A stretch of 64,000 bases of DNA from an uncultured Ectothiorhodospiraceae bacterium (GCA_947259415.1 CAMYMI010000007.1:35565-99564); one strand, 5' to 3'. Shown: positions 19,553-46,449, counted from the first letter of the stretch. Notes: generated by a model not told the origin, from the sequence alone. A program made the numbers and translations.

Positions 19553-19639
19553 GCCGAGGTGGCGGAATTGGTAGACGCGCTAGCTTCAGGTGCTAGTGGG
19601 GGTAACCCCGTGGAGGTTCAAGTCCTCTCCTCGGCACCA
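19553..19639 (+). tRNA. tRNA-Leu (anticodon CAG)
   Basis: 87 nt, type II tRNA with long variable arm, anticodon loop cuUCAGgu, T-arm GGTTCAAGTCC, encoded CCA; occupies the same position as tRNA-Leu between rnr and purA in Pseudomonas. Confidence 0.9.
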
Positions 19640-24018: not shown

Positions 24019-24092
24019 ACCGTGGAGAATTTATTCAGTTAAACTGGAACTTATAAAGAAAACATGAACTGCCTTATCAGGAAAAAATCGCT

Positions 24093-25298: not shown

Positions 25299-25394
25299 AC
25301 CACACCCTGCTTATAAAACATAAAGTTGACACCGATCAATACATTCCAGCCAGAACCGGCTATCCTTATTTATGTAGAAGAGAGAGGATAAAAT

Positions 25395-25772
25395 ATGCAA
25401 ACACCCTTACAGATCATGTTCCATAACATGGAGCCGTCTGACGCCGTAGAAGCTAATATCAAAGAAAAGGCGGCCAAACTCGAACGATTCAGCGACAAGA
25501 TCACCAGCTGCCGGGTCACGGTAGAAGCACCACACAAACACCATCACAAGGGCAACATCTATCACATTGGCCTGGATATTACCGTGCCTGACGCGGAGAT
25601 CGTGGTTAGCCGCATCCCGCATGATAATCATGCCCATGAGGACATCTATGTGGCGATACGTGACGCCTTCAAGAGTGCCCGTCGCCAGCTGGAGGACTAC
25701 GAGCTGAAGCGCCGCGGGAAAACCAAGCATCACCAGATCTACGAGCCGGTCCCCGGCCAGGTCGCTGAGTAA
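25395..25772 (+). CDS. hpf: ribosome hibernation promoting factor / RaiA family (sigma-54 modulation protein fold)
   Basis: MQ...I.F.....S.A....I.EK..KLERF...I.S..V pattern typical of HPF/YfiA; 125 aa with basic C-terminal tail. Confidence 0.75.
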   Translation: MQTPLQIMFHNMEPSDAVEANIKEKAAKLERFSDKITSCRVTVEAPHKHHHKGNIYHIGLDITVPDAEIVVSRIPHDNHAHEDIYVAIRDAFKSARRQLEDYELKRRGKTKHHQIYEPVPGQVAE

Positions 25773-25826
25773 TCAGTAACCACGGGGTGGCGTTTAACGC
25801 CACCCCGTGCAGTCAATCACCTTCCC

Positions 25827-26237
25827 ATGTGGAGGCACTTCCACCACGAGGCCGATATCGGGATTGTTGGCCTGGGTGCTACCCTGGAGCAGGCCTTTGA
25901 GCAAGCCGCCGTTGCCCTGACAGCGGTGATCACCGATCCGGAATCCGTTATCTGCCGCGAGACCGTGGTGCTGGACTGCGAGGCGCCTGATACGGAACTG
26001 CTGCTGGTCGACTGGCTCAATGCACTCGTCTACGAAATGGCCACGCGCCGCATGCTGTTCCGGCGCTTCAACGTTGAACTCAACAACCACAGCCTGCACG
26101 GTACCGCCTGCGGTGAAGCCGTGGATATCCGGCGCCACCAGCCTGCTGCCGAGATCAAGGGCGCCACCTATACGGCACTTAACATCCATGCGGACGCCGG
26201 TGGCATCTGGCATGCTCAATGTGTGGTTGATGTCTAG
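25827..26237 (+). CDS. archease (RtcB activator)
   Basis: [31 protein letters not shown] matches the archease N-terminal signature (HxxHTADIGI...LEEAF). Confidence 0.8.
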
Positions 26238-26373
26238 CCCGAAAAGGGGGTAGCGCCACTGCTGTCCCATTTATTTCAATTGAATCCAGCGCAAGCACCT
26301 CAGCATACTCTCTAAAAGTTGAAATAATAATGGATCAGAGACATGAATGCTGTCCATGACGTTCGGGTAAGAT

Positions 26374-26410
26374 CCCCTCTCCCATGAGTGGGAGTGAGGC
26401 AGGGAGAGGG
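26374..26410. repeat. strong hairpin (9-bp stem ccctctccc/gggagaggg, 18-nt loop) in the archease-rtcB spacer
   Basis: Seen directly; part of a 516-bp non-coding, structured spacer. Confidence 0.5.
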
Positions 26411-26439
26411 TTGATAAATCATGCTGTTAAGAAACTTCG

Positions 26440-26596
26440 TTTCTCACCCCTCATCCTCGGTAACTGCTCCCTGCGTCGCCTAGAGCGCCTACTGTTGGTG
26501 CTCTACCTCCTGCATGGCCCAGGCCAGCCTCTCGACCGGTTCCCGGTCTCACCTTCTCCCTGCAGTCGTAACCTTCTCCCCTTGAAGGGGAGAAGG
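26440..26596. repeat. dispersed repeat, copy B (plus terminal perfect hairpin ccttctcccc-ttgaa-ggggagaagg)
   Basis: Core at 26455-26512 is near-identical to copy A; a 42-nt segment is inserted relative to copy A; ends with a 10-bp perfect hairpin at 26572-26596. Confidence 0.5.
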
Positions 26597-26753
26597 AATT
26601 AACGATACAGCAGTGTGTCAGCACCATTTTCTTGTTTCGATATGGATGCTGCGAGCGAGGCACGAGAAAAGGGCATCGATACCTTTATTCGATGTGCGGG
26701 CTAAACTTAGAACAGGACATGTTTAATTCTGCAGCTATGCGCGGGCACCACCC

Positions 26754-28184
26754 ATGGACACCGCACAACTGACCCGCACCTCGGATTACGAGTGGCGTAT
26801 CGAACCGCAGGGTGCCATGCAGGTACCGGGGATCATATTTGCCAGCGAGGACCTGGTGAGGGCCATGGACGACAAGGTTCGCGAACAGGTCTGCAACGTG
26901 GCCACCCTGCCCGGCATCGTCAAGGCCTCCTACGCCATGCCGGATGCCCACTGGGGCTATGGCTTTCCCATCGGCGGGGTGGCTGCCTTTGATGCCGACC
27001 AGGGCGGAGTCGTTTCCGCCGGGGGTGTCGGTTTCGATATTTCCTGCGGCGTACGCACCCTGCACACCGGCCTGAAACGGCCTGATATCGACGCGGTCAG
27101 GGAACGTCTGGCTGACGCCCTGTTCCATACCATCCCGGCGGGTGTCGGCAGCACCGGGCGCATCCACCTGGACGAGGCCGGCATGGACGCCATGCTGAAC
27201 GGCGGTGCCCGCTGGGCGGTAAAGCGCGGCTGGGGTTACCGCGAAGACCTGGAGCGTGTCGAGGAACACGGCTGCATGGATGGCGCCCGGGCGGAGAACG
27301 TCTCCGAGCGCGCCCGCAAACGCCAGCGTAACGAAATGGGCACCCTGGGTTCCGGCAACCACTACCTCGAGTTGCAGGAGGTCTGCGAGGTCTTTGATCC
27401 CGAGGCGGCCAGCGTCTTCGGTATCAGCCCGGGCGATGTCGTAGTCAGCATCCATTGCGGCTCGCGCGGACTGGGCCATCAGATCGGGACGGAGTTCCTG
27501 AAATCGATGGTGATCAAGGCACAGCAGTACGGCATCACCCTGCCGGACCGCGAACTCGCCTGTGCCCCGATTGACTCGGATACCGGTCAGGCCTATCTCG
27601 GCGCCATGCGCGCGGCCATCAACTGTGCCCTTGCCAACCGCCAGATAATCACCCACCTCACCCGCGAGGTATTCGAGCGGATCATCCCGGCGGCCACGCT
27701 GGAACTGCTCTACGACGTGTCACATAACACCTGCAAGGTGGAGGAGCATGTCATAGACGGCAACCCGCAACGCCTGTATGTCCATCGCAAGGGTGCGACG
27801 CGCGCCTTCGGACCCGGTCACCCCGATATCCCGGAGGACCTGCGCTCCATAGGCCAGCCAGTGCTGATCGGGGGCTCCATGGGGACCGCCTCGCACATCC
27901 TGGCCGGCACCCGACAGGGCGAGGCCCTGTCGTATTCATCGGCCTGTCATGGCGCCGGTCGTGCCATGAGCCGGCGCCGGGCCTACAAGCTCTGGAAGGG
28001 TCGCCAGCTGGTCGACAGCCTGCAGGAGCAAGGCATTCTGATTCGCAGTCCGTCCTCGCGCGGCGTGGCCGAGGAGGCACCGGGAGCCTACAAGGACGTC
28101 GACGCGGTGGTCGATGCCGCCGACGCGGCGGGCCTGGCGCGCAAGGTGGCGAAGCTGAAGCCACTGGCCTGCATCAAGGGCTAG
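26754..28184 (+). CDS. rtcB: RNA-splicing ligase RtcB (3'-phosphate/5'-OH RNA ligase)
   Basis: 476 aa, metal-binding His/Cys (MPDAHWGYGFPIGG, SSACHGAGR), archaeal/eukaryote-like RtcB type. Confidence 0.95.
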   Translation: MDTAQLTRTSDYEWRIEPQGAMQVPGIIFASEDLVRAMDDKVREQVCNVATLPGIVKASYAMPDAHWGYGFPIGGVAAFDADQGGVVSAGGVGFDISCGVRTLHTGLKRPDIDAVRERLADALFHTIPAGVGSTGRIHLDEAGMDAMLNGGARWAVKRGWGYREDLERVEEHGCMDGARAENVSERARKRQRNEMGTLGSGNHYLELQEVCEVFDPEAASVFGISPGDVVVSIHCGSRGLGHQIGTEFLKSMVIKAQQYGITLPDRELACAPIDSDTGQAYLGAMRAAINCALANRQIITHLTREVFERIIPAATLELLYDVSHNTCKVEEHVIDGNPQRLYVHRKGATRAFGPGHPDIPEDLRSIGQPVLIGGSMGTASHILAGTRQGEALSYSSACHGAGRAMSRRRAYKLWKGRQLVDSLQEQGILIRSPSSRGVAEEAPGAYKDVDAVVDAADAAGLARKVAKLKPLACIKG

Positions 28185-28188
28185 GCCG

Positions 28189-28989
28189 ATGCCAGCACAG
28201 CGCGGGCAGCTGTATATCGGGACTTCCGGCTGGTCCTATGACCACTGGAAAGGCCGCTACTACCCCAACGACCTGGCCAGCAGCGGGTGGTTGGGCTATT
28301 ACGCCCGGGAGTTCAACAGCGTCGAGATCAACAGCTCCTTCTATCGTCTGCCCACTGCTTCCACGTTGCAGCACTGGCAGGACGCCACGCCCGCCGACTT
28401 TGTATTTACCGCCAAGGCGAGCCGATACATCACACACATGAAGAAACTGAAAGGGTCGCGGCAAACCCTGCCCCCCTTCCTCGAACGAATCAGTCTTCTC
28501 GGCGACAGGCTGGGCCCCATCCTGTTTCAGCTGCCGCCACACTGGCGCTTCAATGCTGAACGCCTCGCCGCTCTGCTTGATGACCTAGGCGGCGCCTGCC
28601 GTTGCGCCTTCGAATTCCGTGACCACAGCTGGTTCAATGAACAGTGTTATGAACTCCTGTCACGGCACGGCGCCGCGCTGTGTCTCTATGAACTGGAGGG
28701 CTTTCTCAGCCCGCAGGAAATGACTGCCGATTTCGTCTATGTGCGTCTGCATGGGCCTGGGGCGGCCTACCAGGGCAGTTATGGCGACAAGGCACTGGTC
28801 GCTTGGGCGGAGGCCTGCACCCGCTGGACGACCAGTGGGCGCGAGGTTTACATTTATTTTGACAACGACGAATACGCGTATGCGGTACAAAATGCCGCAA
28901 GCCTGCAGGCCATGATTCAGGAGCCCTGCCATGCCGGTTCACAATGCCGAGATCGCCGAACTGTTCAATCGACTCGCCGACCTGCTTGA
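28189..28989 (+). CDS. DUF72 (YecE/UPF0759) family protein
   Basis: YIGTSGWSYDHWKGRYYP N-terminus diagnostic of DUF72; starts 4 nt after rtcB; 3' end overlaps polX by 59 nt. Confidence 0.8.
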   Translation: MPAQRGQLYIGTSGWSYDHWKGRYYPNDLASSGWLGYYAREFNSVEINSSFYRLPTASTLQHWQDATPADFVFTAKASRYITHMKKLKGSRQTLPPFLERISLLGDRLGPILFQLPPHWRFNAERLAALLDDLGGACRCAFEFRDHSWFNEQCYELLSRHGAALCLYELEGFLSPQEMTADFVYVRLHGPGAAYQGSYGDKALVAWAEACTRWTTSGREVYIYFDNDEYAYAVQNAASLQAMIQEPCHAGSQCRDRRTVQSTRRPA

Positions 28990-30652
28990 GCTTGAGGACG
29001 CCAATCCCTTCCGGGTACGCGCCTACCGAACGGCGGCGCGCAATATCAACGGCCTGTCGCACAGCCTGGTTGACCTGCTGGCTGCTGGCGAGGACCTGTC
29101 GAAACTGTCGGGCATCGGCAAGGACCTGGCGGGGAAGATCCGTACCATCATCGAGACCGGCAAGCTGCCACTGCTGGAACAGGTGCAGGCACGCACCCCC
29201 GCCGAGCTCAGCGACCTGATGAAGATCGACGGACTCGGCCCAAAACGGGTGAAGACACTGCACCAGCAGCTGCATATCAGCAGCTTCGAAGACCTGCAGC
29301 GAGCGGCGCGTAGCGGCAAGATCCGCGCACTGGCGGGCTTCGGCGCAAAGACCGAGGCACTCATCCTGGAACGCCTGACACGTTCCCGGCAAGCAGATAT
29401 CCGCTCCCGCCTGGCAGATGCGGAGGATATCGCCGGCCCGCTGGTCAATTATCTGCTGGACTGCACCGGGGTCAAACAGGTCAATATCGCCGGCAGCTAC
29501 CGGCGCCGCCGCGAGACCGTCGGCGACCTGGATATCCTGGTGACAGCGAAACAGGGCACCCCGGTAACCGACCACTTTGTCGCCTATGACGAGGTGAGCG
29601 AGGTGATTTCACACGGCAAGACCCGGTCCACCGTGCACCTGCGTTCCGGCATGCAGGTCGACCTGCGCGTAGTTGCCCAGGTGAGTTATGGTGCCGCCCT
29701 TCTGTATTTCACCGGATCCAAGGCACACAACATCGCCTTGCGCAAGCTGGCCATCAGGCAGGGATACAAGCTCAACGAGTACGGCCTGTTCAGGGGCGAC
29801 AAGCGCGTTGCAGGACGCACGGAGGCGGCCGTGTATGCAAAACTGGGCCTGTCCTATATCGAGCCTGAACTGCGCGAGCAGCAAGGCGAGATAGAGGCAG
29901 CCCGCAAGGGCACTTTGCCTGAACTTGTCAGCCGCGAGGACATCCGTGGTGACCTGCACTGCCATACCCGGGCCACCGATGGCCACGACAGCCTGGAGGC
30001 CATGGTGGCTGCCGCCCGCAAGCTGGGTTATGAATACCTCGCCATCACGGACCATTCAAAACGGGTCAGCGTCGCCCACGGGCTCGATCACAAGCGCCTG
30101 CTGGAGGAGGCCCGGCGAATCAACAAACTCAACGAACAGCTGGATGATATCGTGGTACTCAAGTCCATCGAGGTCGACATCCTCGAGGACGGCAGCCTGG
30201 ACCTGCCCGACAGCGTACTCGGCCAGCTGGACCTGGTGGTCGGTGCGATCCACTACAAGTTTAATCTCACGCGCAAACAGCAGACCGAGCGCATCATCCG
30301 CGCCATGGACAACCCGCACTTCAATATCCTGGCACACCCCAGTGGACGGCTGCTCAACCAGCGCCCGCCCTACGATATCGATATGGAAAAGATCATGCAG
30401 GCCGCTGTGGAGCGCGGCTGCTTCCTGGAACTGAACGCCCAGCCCGCGCGCCTAGACCTCACCGATGGCGACTGCATGCTGGCCCGCGAGTTGCGACTCA
30501 AGGTGGTGATTTCAACCGATGCACACAGTACCGGCACCCTCGACTATATGCGTTTCGGAATAAGCCAGGCACGGCGCGGCTGGCTGGAACCTGACGACGT
30601 GGTCAACACGTGCGGACTGGATGAATTGAGAAAATTACTCAAACGCAACTGA
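28931..30652 (+). CDS. polX: DNA polymerase X family protein with C-terminal PHP phosphoesterase domain
   Basis: Pol-beta-like N-terminus ([17 protein letters not shown], Hh[18 protein letters not shown] catalytic Asp) plus PHP motifs (HCHT, DH, HP). Confidence 0.9.
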
Positions 30653-30725
30653 GGAGCGCTTGCCACGACAACATCTGCGCTGCTCAGCAGCGTCACGGAG
30701 AGCGACACAGGGCAGCATTGGCCAG

Positions 30726-30966
30726 TCAAATACTCTGGCGACAACTGCCTTCGCGAATCCACACACCACGCTCTTCACACCGCAGCATCTCGTCACCGCT
30801 GCAAACATAGTCGCCGATCGCGTAGGCGATATTGTTGAAATGACAGACCCCGGATTCCAGCTCCAGGTCCAGCGACAGCTCATCGGCATCGGTGTCGTCG
30901 AAAATGGGCGAATTCTTCAACTCCGGATCCGGCGCGCCTACCTTCGGTAACTGCCTGACTTCAGTC
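30726..30966 (-). CDS. small hypothetical protein with conserved Cys pattern (C-x15-C...LRC...SC)
   Basis: ORF only; start taken at the internal Met of the ORF 30726..31028; family not recognised. Confidence 0.35.
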
Positions 30967-31214
30967 ATCACCTTTCTCCTCATGGTGTCATTCCCTGTCT
31001 TCTGGATCTGCGCCAGCACACAGGACAACTCTAAATCTTTTTAACTCTTAATGTTAAGTATAGAAGCTGCTGCCGAACCGGACATCGCCCCTGTCAACAA
31101 GCCCCATCTGGTGCGCCCACCATGCTTGTAATGGTCTAGTATTAATGTAGGACTGCCTGAAAGCAGGGACCTGATAATCATCATTTTAATTGCTGATCAT
31201 ATTCGGGAGGCACC

Positions 31215-31649
31215 ATGTCAAGACCCTGGATTGTAGTAGCAGACCAAAGCAAGGCGCGGATATTTTCCATGGAAGACCCGCAAGGGCCACTGCAGGAAAT
31301 GGGCCAGCTGAAACACCCCGAGGCCCGTGAGCATGCCCGGACACTGACGTCCGACCGCCCGGGGCGCAGCTTCGACAGCGGTGGCCAGGGGCGCCATGCC
31401 ATGGGGACATCTGTGGAACCCAAGGAACAGGAGGCCATCCGTTTTGCCAAACAGATTGCCGAACACCTGCGTGCCGAGTGTCACGATAAAGGCTGCAACC
31501 GACTGGTACTGATCGCCGGACCGGACTTTCTGGGCCTGCTCCGGGAGCAGATTGGTTCGATGAATGACATTACCATCACGGAGATCAAGAAAAACCTGGG
31601 GCAGTACAGCCCGCACGAGATTCGTACGCATTTGCCGGCAAGGTTATAA
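31215..31649 (+). CDS. Host_attach (PF10116-like) protein, probable bacterial eRF1-like (baeRF1) fold
   Basis: N-terminus MSRPWIVVADQSKARIFS matches the W[IV]LVAD..ARLF signature of host-attachment family proteins; 144 aa. Confidence 0.5.
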   Translation: MSRPWIVVADQSKARIFSMEDPQGPLQEMGQLKHPEAREHARTLTSDRPGRSFDSGGQGRHAMGTSVEPKEQEAIRFAKQIAEHLRAECHDKGCNRLVLIAGPDFLGLLREQIGSMNDITITEIKKNLGQYSPHEIRTHLPARL

Positions 31650-31726
31650 CGGGACAGTTGCAACCGGAACGATTTTCGGACGTTTTGAAGACGGTTCAGC
31701 ACACCCTGTATCGAGGAGGCAGACAC

Positions 31727-32053
31727 ATGGTCAGCGAAGCCGACCCCATCATCGGAGCGTGGTATCACTACCCGGAAAAGGCGCAGAAATTCGTGGTGGT
31801 TGCCATTGATGAACACACGGATACCATCGAGGTCCAGTACTTCGACGGCAACATCGACGAATTCGATATGAGCGCCTGGTATGAACTCGACATGGAGCGT
31901 ATCGAGGAGCCGGAGGACTGGACCGGGCCAATGGACAACATCGAGAAAGACGACCTCAACCCGGTGGGCACGGAGATGCGGCGCGAGGACTGGGACGCGC
32001 CCTATCAGGAAGAGGATGAGAAAAAGAGCGCCGGACCGCGCGAACCGGATTAA
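31727..32053 (+). CDS. hypothetical acidic protein
   Basis: ORF downstream of the Host_attach gene; highly acidic C-terminus; internal start MVSEADP preferred. Confidence 0.35.
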   Translation: MVSEADPIIGAWYHYPEKAQKFVVVAIDEHTDTIEVQYFDGNIDEFDMSAWYELDMERIEEPEDWTGPMDNIEKDDLNPVGTEMRREDWDAPYQEEDEKKSAGPREPD

Positions 32054-32241
32054 TGGGTAAACTGGAGACAGTCTCCATATCACACGATCACATGGCGGGG
32101 CAGGCAACTGCGTAACCCGTCTATCCCGAATTTGGTTCAGTCCACGCAGATCCGGCCCGCACAGGTGGCAAACGACATGGGCTCGGTTCCAGCGGATGGC
32201 CCCGTGGCTTTGACCGGCTCCCGGGTTCAGGGTAAAAGCGA

Positions 32242-33630
32242 CTAAAGCGGCAACTTCTGCAGGTATTCAGCCTGCGTGACCCGACCACCGAACCCGCGTT
32301 GCAGCTGCGCGGCCAGCACGTCCATCGCATCGGGTTCACCGTGCACCAGGACCACCGGCGGGTGCCCCTCGATCTGGTCATACCAGTCCAGCAAACCCTG
32401 CTGGTCGGCATGGGCAGACAGGCCGCCTACGGTGTGGACCCGAGCCTGCACCTTGATGGTCTCACCCCACAACCTGATATGGCTGGCCCCGTCGACCAGG
32501 GCACGACCCTGTGTCCCGCGCGCCTGGAAGCCGACAATCATGACGTGCGCATCCCGACGCCAGATGTTGTGTTTCAAATGGTGCTTGATGCGCCCGCCGG
32601 TACACATGCCGCTGCCGGCGATGATTATGGCACCGGCATGCAGCGTGTTGATCTGCATGGACTCCTCGGCGCGTTCAGTCATGCGCAGATTGGGCAAGTC
32701 GAACAGGGTGCCGCGCTCGCGGGCAAAGTCACGCGCCCTGACGTCATAGACGCGCGAGTGCCGGTCATAGATCTCGGTTGCCTCGATCCCCATCGGGCTG
32801 TCCAGGAAGATCTGCCAGTCGCCGATCCCCCATTCCTCGTAATGACTGTTGAAGATATACAGCAGCTCCTGGGTGCGGCCAACGGTAAAGGCGGGAACCA
32901 GGATATTACCCTTGCCGGCGTGGGCGCTGGATAGCACCATGCGCATCTCCTCCCAGGTGGATTCCCAGTCGCGGTGCCGGCGGTCGCCGTAGGTGCTTTC
33001 CAGGACCACCAGGTCAGCCTGCGGCACGCGTTCCGGGTCACGCAGGATCGGGGCGCCATGATGCCCGAGGTCGCCGCTGAAAACGACCTTGCGCCTGTGT
33101 CCGCCCTCTTCAAGGTCCAGTACGACGATAGCGGATCCGAGGATATGTCCGGCATCATGCAGCGTCAGGCGCACGCCCGGCAGGATCTGCTGTAGCTGTC
33201 CGAACTCCAGCGCCTTGAAGTGCCGATGCGAGGCGCGTGCCTCCTGGCGGGTGTAGAGGGGTTCCAGGAGTTCCAGACCCTTGCGTGCACGCTTGCGGTT
33301 TTCCCACTCGGCTTCCTTCTCGTTCAGGTAGCCGGCGTCTTCGAGCATGATCGCACACAGGTCGACGGTGGCCGTGTGGGTGTAAACCGGACCCTGGTAA
33401 CCGCGCTTGACCAGCAGCGGCAGCCGTCCGGAATGATCGATATGGGCATGGGTAAGGACCACCGCATCGATCTTTGCCGTATCGAAGCTGAACGCGTCGC
33501 TGTTGTGGCGCTCGTGTTTACGGCTGCCCTGTATCAGCCCGCAGTCAACCAGGACCTGTTGATCAGCGACCCGCAATAGAAAACAGGACCCGGTGACCTC
33601 GCGCGTGGCACCCAGAAACTCGATCTCCAT
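32242..33630 (-). CDS. MBL-fold beta-CASP ribonuclease (RNase J/CPSF73-like)
   Basis: HxHxDH motif THAHIDHSG, beta-CASP region, C-terminal RNA-metabolising MBL domain; 462 aa. Confidence 0.8.
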   Translation of the reverse strand: MEIEFLGATREVTGSCFLLRVADQQVLVDCGLIQGSRKHERHNSDAFSFDTAKIDAVVLTHAHIDHSGRLPLLVKRGYQGPVYTHTATVDLCAIMLEDAGYLNEKEAEWENRKRARKGLELLEPLYTRQEARASHRHFKALEFGQLQQILPGVRLTLHDAGHILGSAIVVLDLEEGGHRRKVVFSGDLGHHGAPILRDPERVPQADLVVLESTYGDRRHRDWESTWEEMRMVLSSAHAGKGNILVPAFTVGRTQELLYIFNSHYEEWGIGDWQIFLDSPMGIEATEIYDRHSRVYDVRARDFARERGTLFDLPNLRMTERAEESMQINTLHAGAIIIAGSGMCTGGRIKHHLKHNIWRRDAHVMIVGFQARGTQGRALVDGASHIRLWGETIKVQARVHTVGGLSAHADQQGLLDWYDQIEGHPPVVLVHGEPDAMDVLAAQLQRGFGGRVTQAEYLQKLPL

Positions 33631-33749
33631 AGTGACTCCTTGTCAGCGGGGGCCGGCGTCGATGTACACACGTCTTAAACACCGGGATCAGCTGCCGGTA
33701 TCCCGAAGCGCCCGCCGGGCGTATTAGGCCATATTTTATTAATTATAGT

Positions 33750-34847
33750 TCAAGTTCTTATATAGAATCTCTCATCCAAAGCCTTAAGTGTTTCCACAAT
33801 CCCTGTGTACTCGAGTTCGTCCATGGGCAGCATGGCCGCACCGAAGAAGCCCTGGCGCCGCATGCCGATGGCCTTGTTCGCGACGGTGTCACGTACCTTG
33901 TCCCAGAAGGGGTGGGCGAACACGTCCACCGCCTCGGTGAAGCGGCCGTCGTGCATGGCAAACGCGGCACAACTCACCACCGGTGGGCCATCGAAATAAC
34001 TGATTCCCGAATTCAGCTGCACCGGCATCAGCGGCATCTGGTGGGAACCGCGCATGGCACCGGCCACGTAGGGCCCGATGGCATAGGGCGCGATGATCTC
34101 GCCGGTCGCCGGAAAGGTCTTCTGCACCCGCACCAGCAGGACCGGATCATCCTTGCCGGTGTACTTGCCGGCAATGTTGTGCAGGCGTGACGTGGACAGC
34201 GAAACCGCCTGTTCGCCGCTGGTCCGTGACCAGACCGATTCGATCACATAGCGCTCCGGATTACGCAGCAGCGCGGCAATGTCGTAGAGATCCTCGGGCG
34301 CATTCAGTTCGATTATACGGTCGCCTTCGGTGTGACTGACATCCATGATCACAAAGCGGAAGCCTTCTTTCATGGACGGCGACAGCATCAGCCCCGGGGT
34401 ATTCATGGGGTCGGCAAAGGCCAGGTACAGAGCCAGGTTGTAACAGCCGGGATCGGTCTTGTCGGCGGCAAAAAACAGGAAGGGTTCATTGGGGCGCTCG
34501 TCGAAGTCCATCTCCGCAACGGCCGGTCCCATACCGCGCACGTTTCCGGAAAAGGCCTCCTTGAGCAGGTCCTGGCCAGCGCCGTAGAGGCCCTGCTCCC
34601 TGGCGGTTTCCGTACCCGCCATGAAGGCATCCCAGGCCAGGGCGTGGATATCCTCATCGGTCACACCACGGGTATGGCTCATGACAATGGCAATGTCGTC
34701 GCCGGTATAGCTGATATAACTGTCGAGCAACAGATCGGCGCTGCGCTCCTGCACCATGTGACGCACGGTTTCCAGGAGGCGGCGTGATGGACAGATATGG
34801 CCGCCGATCGAGCCGATATCCGCTTTAATGACACTGAGTGTGATCTG
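33750..34847 (-). CDS. fbp: bifunctional fructose-1,6-bisphosphate aldolase/phosphatase (class V FBPase)
   Basis: MQITLSVIKADIGSIGGH N-terminus is the hallmark of the archaeal-type FBP aldolase/phosphatase; about 365 aa. Confidence 0.85.
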   Translation of the reverse strand, partial: QITLSVIKADIGSIGGHICPSRRLLETVRHMVQERSADLLLDSYISYTGDDIAIVMSHTRGVTDEDIHALAWDAFMAGTETAREQGLYGAGQDLLKEAFSGNVRGMGPAVAEMDFDERPNEPFLFFAADKTDPGCYNLALYLAFADPMNTPGLMLSPSMKEGFRFVIMDVSHTEGDRIIELNAPEDLYDIAALLRNPERYVIESVWSRTSGEQAVSLSTSRLHNIAGKYTGKDDPVLLVRVQKTFPATGEIIAPYAIGPYVAGAMRGSHQMPLMPVQLNSGISYFDGPPVVSCAAFAMHDGRFTEAVDVFAHPFWDKVRDTVANKAIGMRRQGFFGAAMLPMDELEYTGIVETLKALDERFYIRT

Positions 34848-34970
34848 CATCGGAGTCCCTCCTGCAATAACCGGTATATCAGGCAGCAACAGCTATTTTA
34901 AAGGTAGCAGATTACCAGTGATCCGGGACTGACGTGTGTCAAGGAGAACGCGATCTGCGCTGTGTTTATC

Positions 34971-36224: not shown

Positions 36225-36434
36225 GCCTGTAACTTACACCTCTTGCTGCCGTTATGCCCCTGGGCAAACCCGCAAGCGTCCACAACCACTGCTTGCACCT
36301 GACCGGTTATCACTGATAATTGACGCAAATCAGTCCGGCGACGGATTATGTGGTCCATAATTAATATATAAATCGTAAACCGGTAATTGTCATTAAACGG
36401 ACGTATCCCGGCCACCAGCAGACGAGGCAAACTC

Positions 36435-38870
36435 ATGGAACCAGGCAAGCCGCTGACCCCTGACATGCTCTACCAGGAATGTGACCCGGAACTGTTTGAC
36501 TTTAAAACCACTGACGAACTTGAGGACCTGGTCGATATCCCGGGCCAGGACCGTGCCGTCGAGGCCATCCATTTCGGCACCGAGATGGCGCCCGACGGCT
36601 ATAACCTGTACGTGCTCGGCACCCCGGGCAGCGGCCGGCACAGTCTCGTCAGACACATCCTCGAGCAAAAGAGCGCACAAATACCGGCCGCCGATGACTG
36701 GTGTTACGTGAACAATTTTTCCGACCCGACGAAGCCTTGCGCGCTGCATATGCCTGCAGGCCAGGGTACCGAGCTGCGCAGTGACGTCGCACAGCTGATC
36801 GGCGAGGCCTACACGGGCATACCCGCAGCCTTTGAAAGCGAGGATTACCAGACCCGCCAGCAGGCCATCGAGGAGGAATTCAAGGAATCCCAGGAAAAGA
36901 CCTTCGAGGATGTACAACAGTTCGCCAGGAAACGCGGCATCAAGATCATCCAGACCGCGACCGGCTTCGTATTCGCACCACTGCACAAGGACAAGGCCAT
37001 CAGCCCGCAGGAATACGAAAAGCTGCCACAGACGGAAAAGGAGCACCTGGAACAGGTCACCGAGGAAGTCGGCAAGGAACTACAGCGCGCCATGCAGGCA
37101 ATACCACAGGAGGCGCGCAAGGTGCGCGCCAAGATGCGGGAACTTGACCGCGAGGTCTCGATGTATGCCGTCGGCGGGCTGTTTGACCAGTTGCTGGACA
37201 AGTACCGCACTCAGGAGCAGGTCGTCACCTATCTCAGGGAGATGCAATCCGATATCGTCGACAACGTCGATGTCTTTTTAAAGGCTCCGGAACATGACAG
37301 GCTCCCGGCCAAGGTTCTGCTCGGCGGTCGTGCCCAGGGACTGGAGTCCACTGAATCACCGGCCATGCGCCGCTATGCCGTCAACGTCATAATCGACCAT
37401 GGCGGTGACGAGGGTGCCCCGCTTGTCTTCGAGGATTACCCGACCTTTCCCAACCTGGTCGGCAAGATCGAGCACGTTTCCGAAATGGGCACCCTGATCA
37501 CCAACTTCACCCTGATCAGGGCCGGAGCCCTGCACAGCGCCAATGGCGGATACCTGGTGCTGGATGCCGCAAAGCTGCTGGTACAGCCGTTCGCCTGGGA
37601 GGGCCTGAAGCGCGCCCTGAAATCGTCCCGGATCCGCATCCGTTCGCTCGGCGAGGTTCTCAGCCTGATCAGCACGGTGTCGCTCGAACCGGAACCGATA
37701 CCGCTCAACCTCAAGGTCATTCTGCTGGGCGACCGCCTGATTTACTACCTGCTGCAGGCCTATGACCCCGAGTTCATGGATCTTTTCAAGGTGGCGGCGG
37801 ACTTTGATGACGCAATTGACCGTACCGCGGAGAACAGCCGACAGTTCGCCCGGCTGCTGGCCACCCATATCAAGCGCGAGCAACTCAGGCCACTGGATTG
37901 CTCCGGCACCGCCCGGGTGCTGGAGGAATGCGCACGCCATGCCGGTGATGCGGAAAAGATCTCCGCACAGATCCGCCACGCGGCCGACATCGTTCGCGAG
38001 GCGGATTTCCATGCCCGTAACAACGACAGCAAGATTATCGGCAGCGAAGAGGTCCAGCGTGCGATTGATGCCCGTATCCGCCGCGACAGCCGTATTCGCG
38101 ACCGCCTGCAGGAGGAGATTCTGCGCGGCACCATCCTGATCGACACCGACGGCGAACGCGTAGGCCAGGTCAACGGTCTGGCTGTGGCCCAGCTCGGCGA
38201 GTCCTCCTTTGCCCATCCCTGCCGTATCACCGCGCGCGTCGCCCTGGGATCGGGCGAAGTCGTGGATATCGAACGCGAGGTGGAACTCGGCGGGCCAATC
38301 CATTCCAAGGGCGTATTGATTTTATCGGGGTTCCTGGCATCCCGCTATGTGATAGATCAACCCCTGTCACTGTTCGCGAGCCTGGTGTTCGAGCAAACCT
38401 ACGGCGGGATCGAGGGTGACAGTGCCTCTGCGGCCGAACTCTGTGCCCTGCTCTCGGCACTCGCGCAGATTCCGGTACGGCAGGGCCTGGCGATTACCGG
38501 CTCGGTCAACCAGCATGGCCAGGTCCAGGCCATCGGCGGTGTCAACGAGAAAATCGAGGGGTTCTTCGACATCTGCTCAAGACGCGAGCTGACAGGAACG
38601 CAGGGTGTGCTGATCCCGTCTTCCAACGTCAAGCACCTGATGTTACGCAGGGACGTGATCGAGGCGGTTGCGGCCAAGCATTTCCAGATCTACCCGGTTG
38701 AGACCATCGACCAGTGCATGGAACTCCTGACCGGGATTGAAGCGGGCGAGTGCAATGCCCGGGGTGATTTTCCCACTGATTCGGCCAACCAGCGGATACG
38801 CACCCGGCTGATCGAATTTGCCGAAAAGCGGCATGCCTTCGGCGCGACCGGTTCCAAATCAGAGACCTAG
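36435..38870 (+). CDS. LonC-like Lon-related protease with degenerate AAA+ module
   Basis: Walker A reads GTPGSGRHS (no Lys); C-terminal Lon S16 protease domain with Ser (GDSAS) and Lys (NEKIEGF) dyad; start at MEPGKPLTPD. Confidence 0.8.
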   Translation: MEPGKPLTPDMLYQECDPELFDFKTTDELEDLVDIPGQDRAVEAIHFGTEMAPDGYNLYVLGTPGSGRHSLVRHILEQKSAQIPAADDWCYVNNFSDPTKPCALHMPAGQGTELRSDVAQLIGEAYTGIPAAFESEDYQTRQQAIEEEFKESQEKTFEDVQQFARKRGIKIIQTATGFVFAPLHKDKAISPQEYEKLPQTEKEHLEQVTEEVGKELQRAMQAIPQEARKVRAKMRELDREVSMYAVGGLFDQLLDKYRTQEQVVTYLREMQSDIVDNVDVFLKAPEHDRLPAKVLLGGRAQGLESTESPAMRRYAVNVIIDHGGDEGAPLVFEDYPTFPNLVGKIEHVSEMGTLITNFTLIRAGALHSANGGYLVLDAAKLLVQPFAWEGLKRALKSSRIRIRSLGEVLSLISTVSLEPEPIPLNLKVILLGDRLIYYLLQAYDPEFMDLFKVAADFDDAIDRTAENSRQFARLLATHIKREQLRPLDCSGTARVLEECARHAGDAEKISAQIRHAADIVREADFHARNNDSKIIGSEEVQRAIDARIRRDSRIRDRLQEEILRGTILIDTDGERVGQVNGLAVAQLGESSFAHPCRITARVALGSGEVVDIEREVELGGPIHSKGVLILSGFLASRYVIDQPLSLFASLVFEQTYGGIEGDSASAAELCALLSALAQIPVRQGLAITGSVNQHGQVQAIGGVNEKIEGFFDICSRRELTGTQGVLIPSSNVKHLMLRRDVIEAVAAKHFQIYPVETIDQCMELLTGIEAGECNARGDFPTDSANQRIRTRLIEFAEKRHAFGATGSKSET

Positions 38871-39667
38871 TGATGACGCAGCGCGCCAAACACCCACCTG
38901 CACGGATTGCGGTCATGCTGGTCAACCTCGAGTCTGATCACGCCACCCTGGAAATGCTGAACCTGCTCGCCGGTGAATCACCGGCCGAGATCCACGGCCT
39001 GTTCGTGGAGGATATCGAACTGCTGTCACTGGCTGACCTGCCGCTGGCACGTGAATATTGTCGCCTGACTCATGTGGAACGCGTTGTGCAGGTCCCGGAA
39101 CTCGAACGCCAGTTCAGAATCCAGGCCCGTGCCGCTGAACAGGCACTGACCGCACTCGCCAGCCGTCGCGGCATGCAGTGTTCTTTCAGGACAGTACGCG
39201 GCGAGCCTGCCACCCTGCTGCGGGAAACGCTGGAGGCAATGGATTTGATGTTACTCAGCGCCACTCGCCATACCCTGTCGACAGCCGACTATCGTGCATT
39301 TGCGACCCGTGGCCGTCCCGTCAAAAGGCCGGTGACCGTGGTGTTCGATGGCTCTGAAGTCGCCCAACGCGCCCTCGGGGTTGCCACGCAACTGGCCCGT
39401 GCCGGAGCGGCTGCCTTGACGGTATTGCTGGTGGACGATACATCGGCTGCATTTGATGCACTGCGTTCACAGGCGACTGAACAAATCGGCACACAGCCGG
39501 CCGAGTTCAGGGAAGTCGTAAAACCGGAGATGAGCGAACTCATCAGGCAGGTGCAATCAAGCCGTGCCGGCTGCCTGGTAATCGGGCGGAACGAGGACCT
39601 GCTCACACCGAACAATATCGAACGCCTGCGCCACCAGCCCGGCTGCCCGGTCGTGCTGGTCAGCTAG
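38870..39667 (+). CDS. tandem universal stress protein (UspA) domain protein
   Basis: Two Usp-like alpha/beta modules; ATGA overlap with the lonC-like stop. Confidence 0.65.
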   Translation: MMTQRAKHPPARIAVMLVNLESDHATLEMLNLLAGESPAEIHGLFVEDIELLSLADLPLAREYCRLTHVERVVQVPELERQFRIQARAAEQALTALASRRGMQCSFRTVRGEPATLLRETLEAMDLMLLSATRHTLSTADYRAFATRGRPVKRPVTVVFDGSEVAQRALGVATQLARAGAAALTVLLVDDTSAAFDALRSQATEQIGTQPAEFREVVKPEMSELIRQVQSSRAGCLVIGRNEDLLTPNNIERLRHQPGCPVVLVS

Positions 39668-39733
39668 GGTAACGATGCGTCCACGGATATACCAAACCAG
39701 GCGCCCGGACCCGGCCCGGACGCCTGGCAGCTC

Positions 39734-40204: not shown

Positions 40205-40359
40205 GATATGACCTCCTTTTTCAACATATACCGCTAAACTTCTATATGGTAAATATAGACGCTTATTAATTCGTATATACTGATTTATATCAATCCGGCC
40301 AGATCCCTGATGAAAATAAATTTCAACAGGGCTGCAAACTGGAGACTGGTACAGGCTCG

Positions 40360-42337: not shown

Positions 42338-42388
42338 GATTGCTTGCCTTGTACCAGGCATTGCTGTTGTTATTCGGTTTATCCCGTG

Positions 42389-42982: not shown

Positions 42983-42986
42983 TGTC

Positions 42987-46430: not shown

Positions 46431-46449
46431 TGTTCACAGGCAGATTCAG

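Follow-up and report, generated by a model that had tools for sequence, protein, structure and literature searches.

A candidate FNR/CRP-associated island of separately promoted hibernation, RNA-ligase and stress genes in an uncultured Ectothiorhodospiraceae bacterium

Genes for a ribosome hibernation factor, an RNA ligase with its activator, predicted DNA-repair enzymes, an eRF1-like protein and a ribonuclease lie close together in an uncultured Ectothiorhodospiraceae bacterium (GCA_947259415.1 CAMYMI010000007.1:35565-99564; all 64,000 nt are referred to here as the window). Do they form a single functional module, as a preliminary description proposed for the seven genes at 25395-33630, or several units that share a neighbourhood and perhaps a regulator? 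In this work, profile searches and structure prediction were combined with a comparison of 162 related loci and with an RtcB-anchored set of 80 species-level loci of ~20 kb each. The region consists of several separately promoted units and is not one operon. We consider it slightly better than an even bet that these units belong to a larger island (~25.3-41.4 kb), in which stress and dormancy genes are promoted separately and seem tied together by an FNR/CRP-family operator (Table 1).

Table 1. Features of the region, in window coordinates
Feature	Position	Strand	Evidence or placement
Perfect FNR/CRP-type palindrome TTGACACCGATCAA	25326..25339	.	centre 62 nt 5' of HPF ATG
HPF/YfiA-family hibernation factor, short, non-canonical, 125 aa	25395..25772	+	Pfam PF02482 Ribosomal_S30AE, E 3e-16
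GC-rich hairpin, 13 bp, without U-tract, between HPF and archease	25781..25809	+	
Archease, activator of RtcB guanylylation	25827..26237	+	Pfam PF01951, E 2e-37
Lineage-specific insertion, ~465 nt, repeated intergenic elements	26238..26703	.	blastn, L001 comparison
RtcB 3'-phosphate/5'-OH RNA ligase, archaeal/human archease-dependent type	26754..28184	+	Pfam E 3e-171
DUF72 TIM-barrel protein	28189..28989	+	Pfam E 2e-72
PolX DNA polymerase with PHP 3'-phosphoesterase/exonuclease domain	28931..30652	+	Pfam HHH_8, HHH_5, palm, thumb, PHP
Small Cys-containing ORF, divergent from baeRF12	30726..31028	-	conserved in relatives
Eroded FNR-type box ATCGCCCCTGTCAA, 3 mismatches	31084..31097	.	alignment with relatives
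baeRF-1 family 12 (baeRF12)/Host_attach protein, 144 aa	31215..31649	+	Pfam PF10116 2e-40; baeRF_family12 PF18856 4e-33
DUF6763 protein, immediately 3' of baeRF12	31658..32053	+	Pfam PF20549, E 1e-30
Beta-CASP MBL ribonuclease, TTHA0252/aCPSF1 type	32242..33630	-	Pfam MBL, Beta-Casp, RMMBL
Class V fructose-1,6-bisphosphatase (FBPase_3)	33750..34889	-	Pfam E 5e-160
FNR-type box TTGACACACGTCAG	34929..34942	-	centre 46 nt 5' of FBPase start
FNR-type box TTGACGCAAATCAG	36320..36333	.	60 nt 5' of LonC-like start
LonC-like protease (LonB-type AAA + Lon_C)	36387..38870	+	Pfam AAA_32, LonB_AAA-LID, LonC_helical, Lon_C
Usp-domain protein	38870..39667	+	Pfam Usp

The gene identities proposed earlier largely hold. 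A Pfam profile search of the window recovered all seven named families where they had been placed, with matches to Archease, RtcB, DUF72, PolX/PHP, PF10116 (Host_attach) and beta-CASP as well as to HPF. The HPF protein is a divergent, non-canonical short form: it possesses neither a C-terminal dimerisation domain nor a cold-shock domain, scores 38.7 against the NCBIfam yfiA cutoff of 40.9, and finds its best PDB match in the N-terminal domain of an HPF of 183 aa (9t0z_9, E 8e-24); in other phyla its relatives are fused to a cold-shock domain (HPF-CSD). Archease activates RtcB guanylylation (PMC3973293, PMC4604427). The eukaryote/archaeal character ascribed to RtcB is borne out by its PDB matches (TTHA1785, PH1602 and human RTCB) and by scores below the NCBIfam cutoffs for both the E. 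coli type and PrfH-linked RtcB. The protein keeps every residue aligned to what we take to be D95, C98, N202/H203, H234, H329 and H404 of the P. horikoshii enzyme. As described, DUF72 starts 4 nt past the rtcB stop, a spacing that would suit translational coupling, and overlaps polX, by 59 nt. It matches 1VPQ/TM1631 (E 2e-25) and is predicted kin of UVDE/Endo IV-type DNA-damage endonucleases (PMC11791011, PMC3828134, PMC4939058). PolX exceeds its NCBIfam equivalog cutoff (525 vs 426); its translation shows the GDLDIL and VDLR aspartates and an HCH motif, and Pfam matched both the PolX core and the PHP domain attributed to it. The beta-CASP nuclease had been called RNase J-like, an identity that we reject because its RNase J score of 24.6 bits lies far below the cutoff of 400; it resembles T. 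thermophilus TTHA0252 and aCPSF1.

The preliminary description sought control in a structured spacer, 26238-26753, between archease and rtcB. Judged by its sequence, this spacer is a lineage-specific repeat insertion and not a conserved regulator: it measures 516 nt in the window vs 50 nt in the closest relative, L001, and an Rfam search of it gave no match. The insertion holds a 113-nt repeat (26456-26569), copies of which were found by blastn at other intergenic sites in seven related loci (L089, L099, L096, L092, L158, L154 and L122) and within the window at 15619-15672. It also holds a perfect 12-bp palindrome (26572-26596), and the segment 26256-26434 matches the spacer of L084 in inverted orientation. 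The final ~50 nt ahead of rtcB (26701-26753) represent the ancestral spacer. The ~465-nt insertion bears terminator-like hairpins and, in this genome, may cut RtcB-DUF72-PolX off from transcription that starts at the HPF promoter. The hairpin downstream of HPF may act as a partial terminator or as an mRNA 3'-end stabiliser; a strong hairpin occupies the equal position in L001 and L084, and one of different sequence is found in L004 and L089. Nor is the lack of RtcA and RtcR a departure from known arrangements, as had been suggested: the archease-RtcB pair forms an established type of operon (PMC3973293), and archease lies immediately 5' of RtcB in 75 of the 80 RtcB-anchored loci.

The layout around these genes also differs from that described. 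The baeRF12 and beta-CASP genes, reported as divergent, are convergent, with the DUF6763 gene between them, and the genes are spread over both strands, with four transcription units or more. The beta-CASP gene lies 119 nt 3' of FBPase, which appears to be the first gene of a minus-strand unit ending with beta-CASP and a metabolic member of the putative regulon. A beta-CASP gene of 44-47% identity occurs just 3' of baeRF12 in five loci of another sub-lineage (L114, L115, L122, L135 and L137), and ~0.9-1.4 kb 3' of it in L144 and L150. The LonC-like protease gene, overlooked in the preliminary description, shares one base of its stop with the start of the Usp gene; Usp recurs in 10-14 baeRF12 loci. 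LonC follows baeRF12 immediately in six loci (L098, L107, L125, L139, L141 and L152; gaps 49-213 nt) and after ~450-700 nt in L089 and L004, and it occurs in 17 of 80 baeRF12 loci. The protease and the beta-CASP nuclease are thus recurrent downstream partners of baeRF12. The small ORF had likewise been overlooked; it is conserved in L001, L083, L084, L033 and L051, gave no match in Pfam or NCBIfam, and probably starts internally, with a product of ~78 aa. DUF6763 keeps its position in L001, L083 and L084. The units would comprise factors that silence ribosomes, the archease-RtcB ligase pair, DUF72-PolX as a pair for DNA repair, one nuclease and one protease, most of them with a putative site upstream for FNR, a regulator of the low-oxygen response.

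The neighbourhood proved to be conserved in one respect and not in another: the genes come together non-randomly, in unrelated as well as related genomes, but the content varies and no fixed module is seen. Among the 80 RtcB-anchored loci, DUF72 is present in 15, an HPF-family gene in 11, PolX in 9 and LonC in 7, counts above the chance level, which we put at ~0.5 per 80 loci if a single-copy gene has a random position in a ~3.5 Mb genome. DUF72 lies immediately 3' of RtcB in 12 of 73 evaluable species loci. RtcB-DUF72 linkage extends over at least six RtcB clades and RtcB-HPF linkage over at least eight, and RtcB-DUF72-PolX is found in two distant clades. HPF and baeRF12 stand side by side in five loci, in three of them (L088, L096 and L099, as distinct from L087 and L090) without archease-RtcB; the order HPF-archease-RtcB-baeRF12(-LonC) is seen in eight (L004, L089, L095, L098, L107, L125, L139 and L152), many such loci lacking DUF72-PolX (L004, L089 and L095); and HPF-archease-RtcB-DUF72-PolX-smallORF-baeRF12-DUF6763 is shared by the window, L001, L083 and L084. 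This points to a modular island in which HPF and baeRF12 would form a bracket, with archease-RtcB and then DUF72-PolX cassettes nested within.

Such an arrangement could also have arisen without function, the genes being neighbours by descent and through mobile cassettes that gathered in a permissive region prone to recombination, with functional coupling confined to the known archease-RtcB pair. The baeRF12-anchored loci all come from related sediment gammaproteobacteria, repeat elements have inserted in the region, and metabolic genes (FBPase, MgtC) lie among the others. The RtcBs linked to baeRF12 belong without exception to one clade, so the RtcB-baeRF12 link may go back to one arrangement in a common ancestor. 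Most baeRF12 loci have other immediate neighbours (class I aldolase downstream in 13/56, PCMT upstream in 6/58, YbaK on either side). We nevertheless regard this explanation as improbable: adjacency of RtcB to DUF72, PolX and HPF in many RtcB clades and phyla lies far above the chance estimate, 12 of the 15 DUF72 occurrences are co-directional in the +1 slot, several units are preceded by a common operator, and independent literature ties Balon/baeRF to HPF and RtcB (PMC6514570, PMC10901736).

That operator is an FNR/CRP-type palindrome, TTGAY-N4-RTCAA. The preliminary description saw no regulator; candidate operators are seen at class II promoter distance 5' of HPF, LonC and FBPase/beta-CASP. 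The window holds 11 such boxes (4.46 expected), of which seven are intergenic, though just 11.2% of the window is intergenic, and all seven have a -10-like hexamer 21-23 nt beyond. At HPF the hexamer is TATCCT, 21 nt beyond the box (class II geometry), at FBPase TACCTT and at LonC CATAAT, each 22 nt beyond. The HPF box is kept 60-62 nt upstream in six relatives (L001, L004, L084, L088, L096 and L099), and boxes upstream of HPF were found in the gammaproteobacterial clade only. The eroded box corresponds to one that in relatives is common to the small ORF and baeRF12, with intact orthologous copies in L001, L083 and L084; in 4/6 relatives the small ORF is preceded by a box at a distance of ~60 nt, and in alignments the box is the sole conserved block of otherwise diverged baeRF12 upstream regions. 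Against a background of ~3.5% per 200 nt, a box within 200 nt upstream was found for baeRF12 in 45/82 cases, LonC in 12/29, HPF in 7/18, beta-CASP in 6/12 and class I aldolase in 8/13, and among control genes for MacB in 0/10, HlyD in 0/11, Usp in 0/15, PCMT in 0/13 and RtcB in 2/90. The window encodes no Crp/Fnr regulator; Crp/Fnr-family genes occur in three related loci, e.g. immediately 5' of Hsp20-archease-RtcB in L071. Since genes with a plainly metabolic role (FBPase, aldolase and a symporter) have boxes upstream as well, the operator is the mark of a general regulon and not of a dedicated module.

The role of baeRF12 bears on a further alternative. The preliminary description had assigned the protein to a bacterial eRF1-like family, which the PF10116 match supports. 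It consists of a single aeRF1/Balon middle (RNase H-fold) domain; its AlphaFold model (pLDDT 72) has the element order b-b-b-loop-a-b-a-b-a. Since the best Foldseek matches of this predicted 144-aa structure are Balon (8v9j_z, E 4e-6), Pelota and eRF1, the eRF1-like assignment stands. The stalled-ribosome rescue function attached to it is only one possible reading, in which baeRF12 would be an active stand-alone GGQ-type peptidyl-tRNA hydrolase that, in the manner of PrfH-RtcB2 (a precedent, PMC9304027), frees peptides from ribosomes whose rRNA or tRNA was cut by ribotoxins or stress nucleases; RtcB/archease would then reseal the RNA, HPF parking the ribosomes meanwhile. The window protein does carry a literal GGQ (SGGQGRH) between strand 3 and helix 1, the site of the catalytic GGQ of eRF1, and RtcB lies immediately 5' of baeRF12 in 7 of 58 evaluable loci. 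Across 121 sequences the loop D47-x2-G50-R51-x2-D54-x2-G57-x-G59-x-H61 is invariant, whereas in most baeRF-1 families the loop is reported to be poorly conserved (PMC6514570). However, the Gln, Q58, is kept in only 71% of these sequences, with G, E or H in its place in 29% of close homologues. Domains for codon recognition and GTPase binding are absent from the protein, as is an ArfB-like tail, and RtcB scores 133.6 against a cutoff of 271.8 for the PrfH-linked RtcB family TIGR03073. A PADLOC search for defence systems gave no match, and the operator suggests physiological rather than conflict-driven control. Balon, the solved structural neighbour that binds bacterial ribosomes, is a non-catalytic hibernation factor (PMC10901736). 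On balance, we find rescue and repair of this kind unlikely.

Least probable, and in our judgement doubtful indeed, is the original proposal of one co-expressed RNA-damage module with roles in hibernation, rescue, religation and end trimming: all its families are present, five genes are co-directional with short or overlapping junctions, and HPF, RtcB, baeRF12 and beta-CASP recur near one another elsewhere, but some loci that are equivalent in other respects lack DUF72-PolX or archease-RtcB, DUF72 and PolX are predicted to act on DNA and not RNA, the spacer is not conserved, and beta-CASP lies on the opposite strand behind FBPase, is absent from 80/80 RtcB-anchored loci and is parted from DUF6763 by three extra genes in L001.

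For the separately promoted island, we propose the following working. With falling oxygen, or another signal of the regulator, an FNR-type activator would, to judge from sequence and conservation, bind palindromes centred ~41.5 nt 5' of the start sites of HPF, LonC-Usp and FBPase/beta-CASP and, in relatives, also of baeRF12. By homology, the short HPF would fill the 30S decoding region and baeRF12 would point its conserved loop to the A site and the peptidyl-transferase centre, both jointly silencing and protecting ribosomes. RtcB, whose enzyme type is clear, would upon activation by archease reseal rRNA or tRNA with 3'-phosphate/5'-OH breaks, these substrates being presumed. DUF72 and PolX-PHP, companions of RtcB in many lineages, may act on damaged ends of nucleic acids, processing and filling them, most probably at DNA lesions accumulating in non-growing cells, and turnover could be supplied by the LonC-like protease and the beta-CASP RNase.

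The window extends a gene association that is already published for the hibernation factor Balon together with HPF and RtcB. Balon genes adjoin RaiA and at times RtcB (PMC10901736), baeRF-1 families have been linked to HPF (PMC6514570), and non-canonical HPF isoforms adjoin Balon, one of them being hypoxia-induced in M. tuberculosis (bioRxiv 2025.11.04.686544). Balon is anchored to the decoding centre and EF-Tu through N and C domains that baeRF12 does not have, and binding of baeRF12 to the ribosome is a prediction from the domain that the two proteins share.

ORF listing combined with Pfam searches confirmed all seven genes that the preliminary description had assigned to the cluster: HPF, archease, RtcB, DUF72, PolX, a Host_attach/baeRF family 12 protein (hereafter baeRF12) and a beta-CASP nuclease. 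The DUF72 gene starts 4 nt past rtcB and overlaps polX by 59 nt, and neither an RtcA nor an RtcR domain is encoded by the genes between positions 21655 and 41379, in agreement with what had been reported. The baeRF12 and beta-CASP genes, previously called divergent, are actually convergent, and a conserved small ORF with four Cys residues, a DUF6763 gene and a gene for a LonC-like protease, the latter followed by a Usp gene, had been overlooked. The small ORF has no match in Pfam or NCBIfam and is kept in the related loci L001, L083, L084, L033 and L051. The seven-gene region is preceded by a MacB/HlyD efflux pair and followed by a class V FBPase gene; in L004, L088, L099, L103, L104, L106 and L109, too, the efflux pair shows synteny with HPF and/or baeRF12. 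The window comes from an uncultured gammaproteobacterium, and the closest public contig, L001 (MAG GCA_947258545.1), encodes proteins 79-93% identical to its own; for the RtcB of the window, an exact-sequence match was not on record among public assemblies.

Genes, candidate operators and repeats in the window and in related loci (numbered L)
Feature	Location	Coordinates	Strand	Remarks
tRNA-Leu(CAG)	window	19553-19639	+	Rfam/ARAGORN
MacB/HlyD efflux pair	window	21655-25298		
HPF/S30AE	window	25395-25772	+	PF02482, 60.2 bits (cutoff 23.7)
Archease	window	25827-26237	+	Pfam
RtcB	window	26754-28184	+	Pfam
DUF72	window	28189-28989	+	Pfam
PolX with PHP	window	28931-30652	+	Pfam
Small ORF	window	30726-31028	-	
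Host_attach/baeRF_family12 (baeRF12)	window	31215-31649	+	PF10116, 139.2 bits (cutoff 26.7); PF18856, 115.4 bits (cutoff 27.7)
DUF6763	window	31658-32053	+	
beta-CASP/RMMBL metallo-beta-lactamase	window	32242-33630	-	Pfam
LonC-like protease	window	36387-38870	+	
Usp	window	38870-39667	+	
YbaK/tRNA_edit-like	window	~39700-40200	-	
339-aa ORF	window	40360-41379	+	no Pfam match
Redoxin, cytochrome b561, multihaem cytochrome	window	41450-44909		
FNR-type box	window	40280-40293		common to 339-aa ORF (+) and divergent YbaK/tRNA_edit-like gene (-)
FNR-type boxes	window	45512, 46230, 48365 (perfect)		upstream of DUF302 gene, Na/sulfate-type symporter and 273-aa ORF without Pfam match
113-nt repeat unit	window	26456-26569		partial copy at 15619-15672
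113-nt repeat copies	L089	2656-2768		
	L099	2842-2954		
	L096	513-625		
	L092	392-490		
	L158	11129-11189		
	L154	17251-17311		
	L122	776-822		
Crp/Fnr-family genes	L071	7502-8206	+	
	L106	2816-3700	-	
	L115	18991-19785	-	
HPF-CSD genes	L030	10801-11373	-	
	L010	10611-11366	+	
NAD-salvage/PRPP genes (examples)	L018	8857-9564		
	L058	10774-12120		
	L025	11442-12041		
	L079	20090-21088		
AmmeMemoRadiSam-type locus	L002	6868-7962		

Conservation of the neighborhood was analyzed in two samples, one anchored on RtcB (80 species-level genomes of many phyla, RtcB 69-80% identical) and one anchored on baeRF12 (80 metagenome loci, baeRF12 56-87% identical), with genes in related loci identified by a GC3-weighted caller and tblastn anchoring. 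In the first sample, archease is located directly upstream of RtcB in 75/80 loci, as it is, co-directionally, in the window. A co-directional DUF72 gene directly follows RtcB in 12 of the 73 evaluable loci and PolX does so in two of the 73, while within 10 kb of RtcB we found PolX in 9/80, an HPF-family gene in 11/80 and a LonC-like protease gene in 7/80 loci. A profile search of the 80 genomes detected baeRF12 in L004 and L034 only, and the beta-CASP gene occurs in none of the 80 loci. Among the carriers of RtcB-DUF72 is the cultivable Sulfuricella sp. T08 (L016). In a neighbor-joining tree of RtcB, the DUF72-linked proteins fall into at least six separate clades and the HPF-linked proteins into at least eight. 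Those linked to both DUF72 and PolX belong to two distant clades, with DUF72 just 38-40% identical to that of the window and RtcB about 75% identical, and the baeRF12-linked ones form one gammaproteobacterial clade.

The baeRF12-anchored loci form a nested series of gene orders, which leads from adjacent HPF and baeRF12 (L087, L088, L090, L096, L099), through HPF-archease-RtcB-baeRF12, often with LonC directly next (L004, L089, L095, L098, L107, L125, L139, L152), to HPF-archease-RtcB-DUF72-PolX-small ORF(-)-baeRF12-DUF6763 in the window, L001, L083 and L084. Immediately downstream of baeRF12 are genes for a class I aldolase (13/56), LonC (7/56) or beta-CASP (5/56), and immediately upstream are those for RtcB (7/58), PCMT (6/58) or HPF (4/58). 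Because of the counts in both anchored samples, the cluster is regarded as non-random and modular, without a fixed seven-gene unit. The island is real, and it recurs in relatives in modular form; the earlier proposal of one integrated module is unsupported, since gene content varies among related loci, for example in the beta-CASP gene.

Other genes recur around these loci. A PRTase-like protein is encoded beside archease-RtcB in 11 loci, mostly just upstream of archease, and the further NAD-salvage/PRPP genes that recur beside archease-RtcB include those for NAPRTase (10 loci), an isochorismatase/PncA-like protein (6 loci) and, as judged by sequence inspection, a PRPP-synthase-like protein (5 loci); the examples in the table are accompanied by other members of their clusters. 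An AMMECR1/Memo/radical-SAM trio (AmmeMemoRadiSam-type) precedes PRTase-archease-RtcB-(DUF72)-PolX in 5-7 loci, lying ~1-5 kb upstream of archease (L009, L013, L017, L018, L052, L058, L073), and in Thiogranum longum a radical SAM gene adjoins PolX, near baeRF12. A PhoH-like ATPase with an N-terminal PIN domain is encoded ~5-9 kb downstream of RtcB in L013, L017, L018, L052 and L068, a clade most members of which carry DUF72 and/or PolX. The 339-aa ORF recurs in six baeRF12 loci, and YbaK-like genes are present in 17 of the 80.

The RtcB of the window is of the archaeal/human type, as previously described: in the PDB it is matched best by TTHA1785, PH1602 and human RTCB, and alignment to 1uc2_A demonstrated conservation of all metal-binding and guanylylation residues, which we take to be D95, C98, H203, H234, H329 and H404 of P. 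horikoshii. It scores 168 bits against the E. coli-type model (cutoff 407) and 133.6 bits against TIGR03073, the model of the PrfH-linked type (cutoff 271.8), and is archease-dependent. PolX combines a Pol beta-like core with a PHP domain (Pfam; NF006375 equivalog, 525.2 bits, cutoff 426), as had been noted. The PolX-PHP proteins of B. subtilis and T. thermophilus, with the same domain set, function in base-excision/gap-filling repair. The DUF72 protein matches TM1631 (1VPQ), a TIM barrel; DUF72 proteins of this type are UVDE/Endo IV-like DNA-repair nucleases by computational prediction only (PMC11791011, PMC3828134, PMC4939058). The beta-CASP nuclease had been described as RNase J-like, an assignment contradicted by its score of 24.6 bits against TIGR00649 (cutoff 400); it is TTHA0252/aCPSF1-like, with TTHA0252 as its best PDB relative (E 1e-84).

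The archease-rtcB gap measures 516 nt in the window vs 50 nt in L001, and its final ~45 nt align with the L001 spacer. It contains a 113-nt unit that recurs with 86-90% identity elsewhere in intergenic regions of related contigs and, in part, in the window itself. Several hairpins are predicted in this repeat family, whose hosts are related gammaproteobacteria and which resembles a mobile element of the REP/MITE kind. The stretch from 26256 to 26434 matches, inverted, the equivalent L084 spacer; a terminator-like hairpin and a perfect palindrome of 12 bp are likewise present in the window spacer. The latter represents an insertion of mobile intergenic repeats (~465 nt) into an ancestral gap of ~50 nt and no conserved regulatory RNA. 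Rfam at the gathering threshold and ARAGORN revealed a sole RNA gene in the window, that for tRNA-Leu, and permissive Rfam scans of 25250-26800 and 30600-32300 returned no match, so a spacer riboswitch or known sRNA was no longer considered. Control through the structured spacer at 26238-26753, as suggested previously, is likewise unsupported, the spacer being an insertion of repeats without Rfam match. Scans of 25000-34000 for sigma-70 and terminator consensus sequences gave background levels.

The assignment of the first gene to ribosome hibernation factors was correct as to its HPF/S30AE N-terminal domain (PF02482), while the protein is divergent and falls below the cutoff of the canonical yfiA equivalog (NCBIfam TIGR00741, 38.7 bits, cutoff 40.9). 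Its best PDB match is 9t0z_9, the N-terminal domain of a 183-aa HPF (E 8e-24). It represents the short form within a clade of divergent paralogues that otherwise consists of fusions with a C-terminal cold-shock domain (HPF-CSD). By Pfam, HPF-CSD genes are situated at most 10 kb from archease-RtcB in various groups, among them Acidobacteriota, Betaproteobacteria and Gammaproteobacteria (L030 and L010; also L007, L020, L028, L070, L072, L076 and L081). Chimeric HPF-CSDs were described as non-canonical isoforms, often beside Balon, in a 2025 preprint (bioRxiv 2025.11.04.686544). Full-length Balon was sought beside the HPF-CSD genes of other phyla and not found; their neighbors encode ClpB-like, sigma-70, DksA-like, HlyD, radical SAM and PGA_cap proteins. 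Directly after the HPF gene lies a conserved GC hairpin that has no U-tract; it suggests stronger expression of HPF than of the downstream genes. Both HPF and baeRF12 have clear GGAGG-like sites, and archease has no recognizable Shine-Dalgarno sequence (window 25810-25829, …CACCTTCCCATG; the equivalents in L001 and L004 are alike).

The expected PF10116 match of the protein encoded at 31215 and its eRF1 fold were both found. The structural model of baeRF12 (pLDDT 72, with the loop at low confidence) has the topology b-b-b-long loop-a-b-a-b-a and comprises one RNase H-fold domain of 144 aa. Its best Foldseek matches are Balon (8v9j_z and 8rd8_B), Pelota (3wxm) and eRF1 (1dt9), and it covers about one quarter of Balon (TMt 0.25-0.27); these matches identify baeRF12 as a stand-alone aeRF1/Balon middle domain. 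A search of the baeRF12 alignment profile against PDB sequences gave chance hits only, with no profile-sequence similarity to Balon, and the kinship with Balon and eRF1 thus rests on Pfam clan membership and fold. Reduced, single-domain relatives of the Balon-type factors are abundant among environmental bacteria, with 917 database clusters at E <= 1e-5. Across 121 homologues the most conserved part is the loop, with D47, G50, R51, D54, G57 and H61 invariant; in the window it reads SGGQGRH, and Q58 of the GGQ is kept in 71% of homologues vs 100% for G57. The literal GGQ within an invariant loop would suit the main alternative to our reading, namely a rescue-and-repair system resembling PrfH-RtcB2 with a catalytic baeRF12. 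This less likely alternative is weakened by the variability of the Gln, by the subtype of RtcB and by the absence of defence signatures, and the catalytic competence of baeRF12 appears doubtful from its sequence. An anti-phage system was rejected because PADLOC, applied to ten island proteins, found no defence-system match except a weak MBL hit.

When the upstream regions of HPF were aligned, a conserved palindrome emerged that reads TTGACACCGATCAA in the window and agrees with the FNR/ANR/Dnr-type consensus TTGAY-N4-RTCAA. With at most one mismatch, this box occurs 11 times in the window vs 4.46 expected, and seven of the 11 are intergenic, although intergenic DNA makes up 11.2% of the window. 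The intergenic boxes lie upstream of HPF, of FBPase (with beta-CASP behind it), of LonC-Usp (a box common to the divergent MgtC gene), of the YbaK/339-aa-ORF divergent pair, of the DUF302 gene, of the symporter and of the 273-aa ORF. At HPF, LonC, FBPase and the 339-aa ORF a -10-like hexamer follows the box by 21-23 nt, so these predicted promoters have class II activator geometry, with the palindrome centered near -41.5. Across all loci, boxes were counted within 200 nt upstream of each gene, for which the background is ~3.5% per 200 nt. They precede baeRF12 in 45/82 cases, LonC in 12/29, HPF in 7/18, beta-CASP in 6/12, class I aldolase in 8/13 and the small ORF in 4/6 relatives (~60 nt upstream), and among the controls RtcB in 2/90 and MacB (0/10), HlyD (0/11), Usp (0/15) and PCMT (0/13) in none. 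The box is the sole conserved block in the otherwise diverged baeRF12 upstream regions; the window copy common to baeRF12 and the small ORF is eroded, with three mismatches. No Crp/Fnr regulator gene was found in the 64-kb window. Three related islands contain Crp/Fnr-family genes: that of L071 is directly upstream of Hsp20-archease-RtcB (Pfam), and the product of the L106 gene carries a Cys cluster at its N terminus. Metabolic genes, too, are preceded by boxes, which therefore mark a general regulon, presumably one of low oxygen. A redoxin and cytochromes are also encoded in the window, and together with the boxes at 41450-49294 they fit a low-oxygen lifestyle.

The enzyme and factor families, their modular, recurrent co-localization and the conserved sequence and geometry of the operator were observed directly, and the most likely mode of action is built on them. 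When oxygen is scarce, an FNR-family activator would induce the units; the short HPF and baeRF12 would bind and silence ribosomes, archease/RtcB would reseal cut rRNA and tRNA, DUF72 and PolX-PHP would repair damaged nucleic-acid ends, and the LonC-like protease and beta-CASP RNase would take care of turnover. A more far-reaching reading, rather unlikely to hold as a whole, would make baeRF12 a new, minimal type of factor acting at the ribosomal A site/peptidyl-transferase centre, consisting of the middle domain of eRF1 alone and distinguished by an invariant loop of its own (D-x2-GR-x2-D-x2-G-x-G-x-H). An FNR-type regulator would switch it on at low oxygen, and its partners in shutting ribosomes down, protecting them and afterwards clearing or recycling them would be the non-canonical HPF, the LonC-like protease and the beta-CASP RNase. 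In this reading, archease-RtcB, DUF72 and PolX-PHP would separately make up a previously unrecognized end-repair cassette of three enzymes, by which RNA, and perhaps DNA, broken with 3'-phosphate/5'-OH ends would be healed and sealed in dormant cells.

Balon-type ribosome hibernation is a recent discovery, and the conserved FNR-type operator predicts low oxygen as the inducing condition here. The invariant baeRF12 loop offers residues for separating a catalytic (release) from a blocking (hibernation) role. The recurrent RtcB-DUF72-PolX cassette would place DUF72, a widespread family of solved structure, in a biochemical context for the first time, and it hints at a link between the end-repair of RNA and that of DNA in non-growing cells. 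If no lead holds, the locus still exemplifies archease-RtcB cassettes lodging in stress islands.

Known before were the linkage of baeRF-1 families to HPF (Burroughs and Aravind 2019, PMC6514570), the location of Balon genes beside RaiA and, in some genomes, RtcB (Helena-Bueno et al. 2024, PMC10901736) and the archease-RtcB operon (Desai et al. 2014 and 2015; PMC3973293, PMC4604427). The single-domain family 12 with an invariant loop, the recurrent LonC-like and beta-CASP partners of baeRF12, the RtcB-DUF72(-PolX) cassette and the FNR-type operator were not found in the literature searched, outside which many subscription journals lie; a search on Host_attach/PF10116 found nothing relevant, and no paper on DUF72 together with RtcB, archease or PolX was found in literature omitting most subscription journals.

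As in the Balon-RaiA(-RtcB) arrangement, an aeRF1-derived protein is encoded here beside an HPF/RaiA-family factor and sometimes RtcB, and the efflux and stress genes reported to adjoin Balon are echoed by the synteny of MacB/HlyD and by the nearby Usp and Lon-like protease genes (PMC10901736). According to that source, Balon (~360 aa) has three domains and no GGQ: the HP motif of the N domain sits at the decoding centre, the C domain binds EF-Tu, and the third domain is the middle one. The baeRF12 protein corresponds to the middle domain alone, with a different, invariant loop in which the GGQ-like Gln is partly retained; links to DUF72-PolX, LonC or beta-CASP and an FNR-type operator were not found in the passages of that source consulted. 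Like the families of PMC6514570, the window protein, a member of baeRF_family12, has HPF as a recurrent neighbor and is reduced to the RNase H-fold core. The catalytic loops of the reduced families are described there as poorly conserved and mostly devoid of the Gln, in contrast to the loop of baeRF12, and the main text of PMC6514570 makes no mention of Lon/protease/metallo, archease, CASP or DUF72.

As in the archease-RtcB operon, archease in the window directly precedes rtcB, whose product is of the archaeal/human type and has its full active site; unlike in that operon, the pair is split by the repeat insertion, embedded between hibernation-factor genes and extended by DUF72-PolX. With the RtcR-RtcA-RtcB operon of E. 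coli and Salmonella (PMC7790460) the window has in common an RtcB ligase as a stress-responsive RNA repair enzyme, but the cluster lacks RtcA and RtcR/sigma-54 control, and its RtcB is of another, archease-dependent subtype. In PrfH-RtcB2 (PMC9304027, PMC9223846), too, a stand-alone release-factor-like domain is encoded beside an RtcB ligase. PrfH has the bacterial RF fold, whereas that of baeRF12 is archaeo-eukaryotic, and the RtcB found here is not of the PrfH-linked type.

In mycobacteria, DosR is the hypoxia regulator of the hibernation factors Rv2629/Msmeg1130 and Rv0079/RafH. The former is a Balon homologue and the latter a non-canonical HPF, both under hypoxia-responsive control (PMC10901736; bioRxiv 2025.11.04.686544). 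In the island, as in mycobacteria, low oxygen appears to control both a non-canonical HPF and a Balon-type protein; unlike there, this control would act through an FNR/CRP-family palindrome, and the proteins are a short HPF and a single-domain baeRF12.
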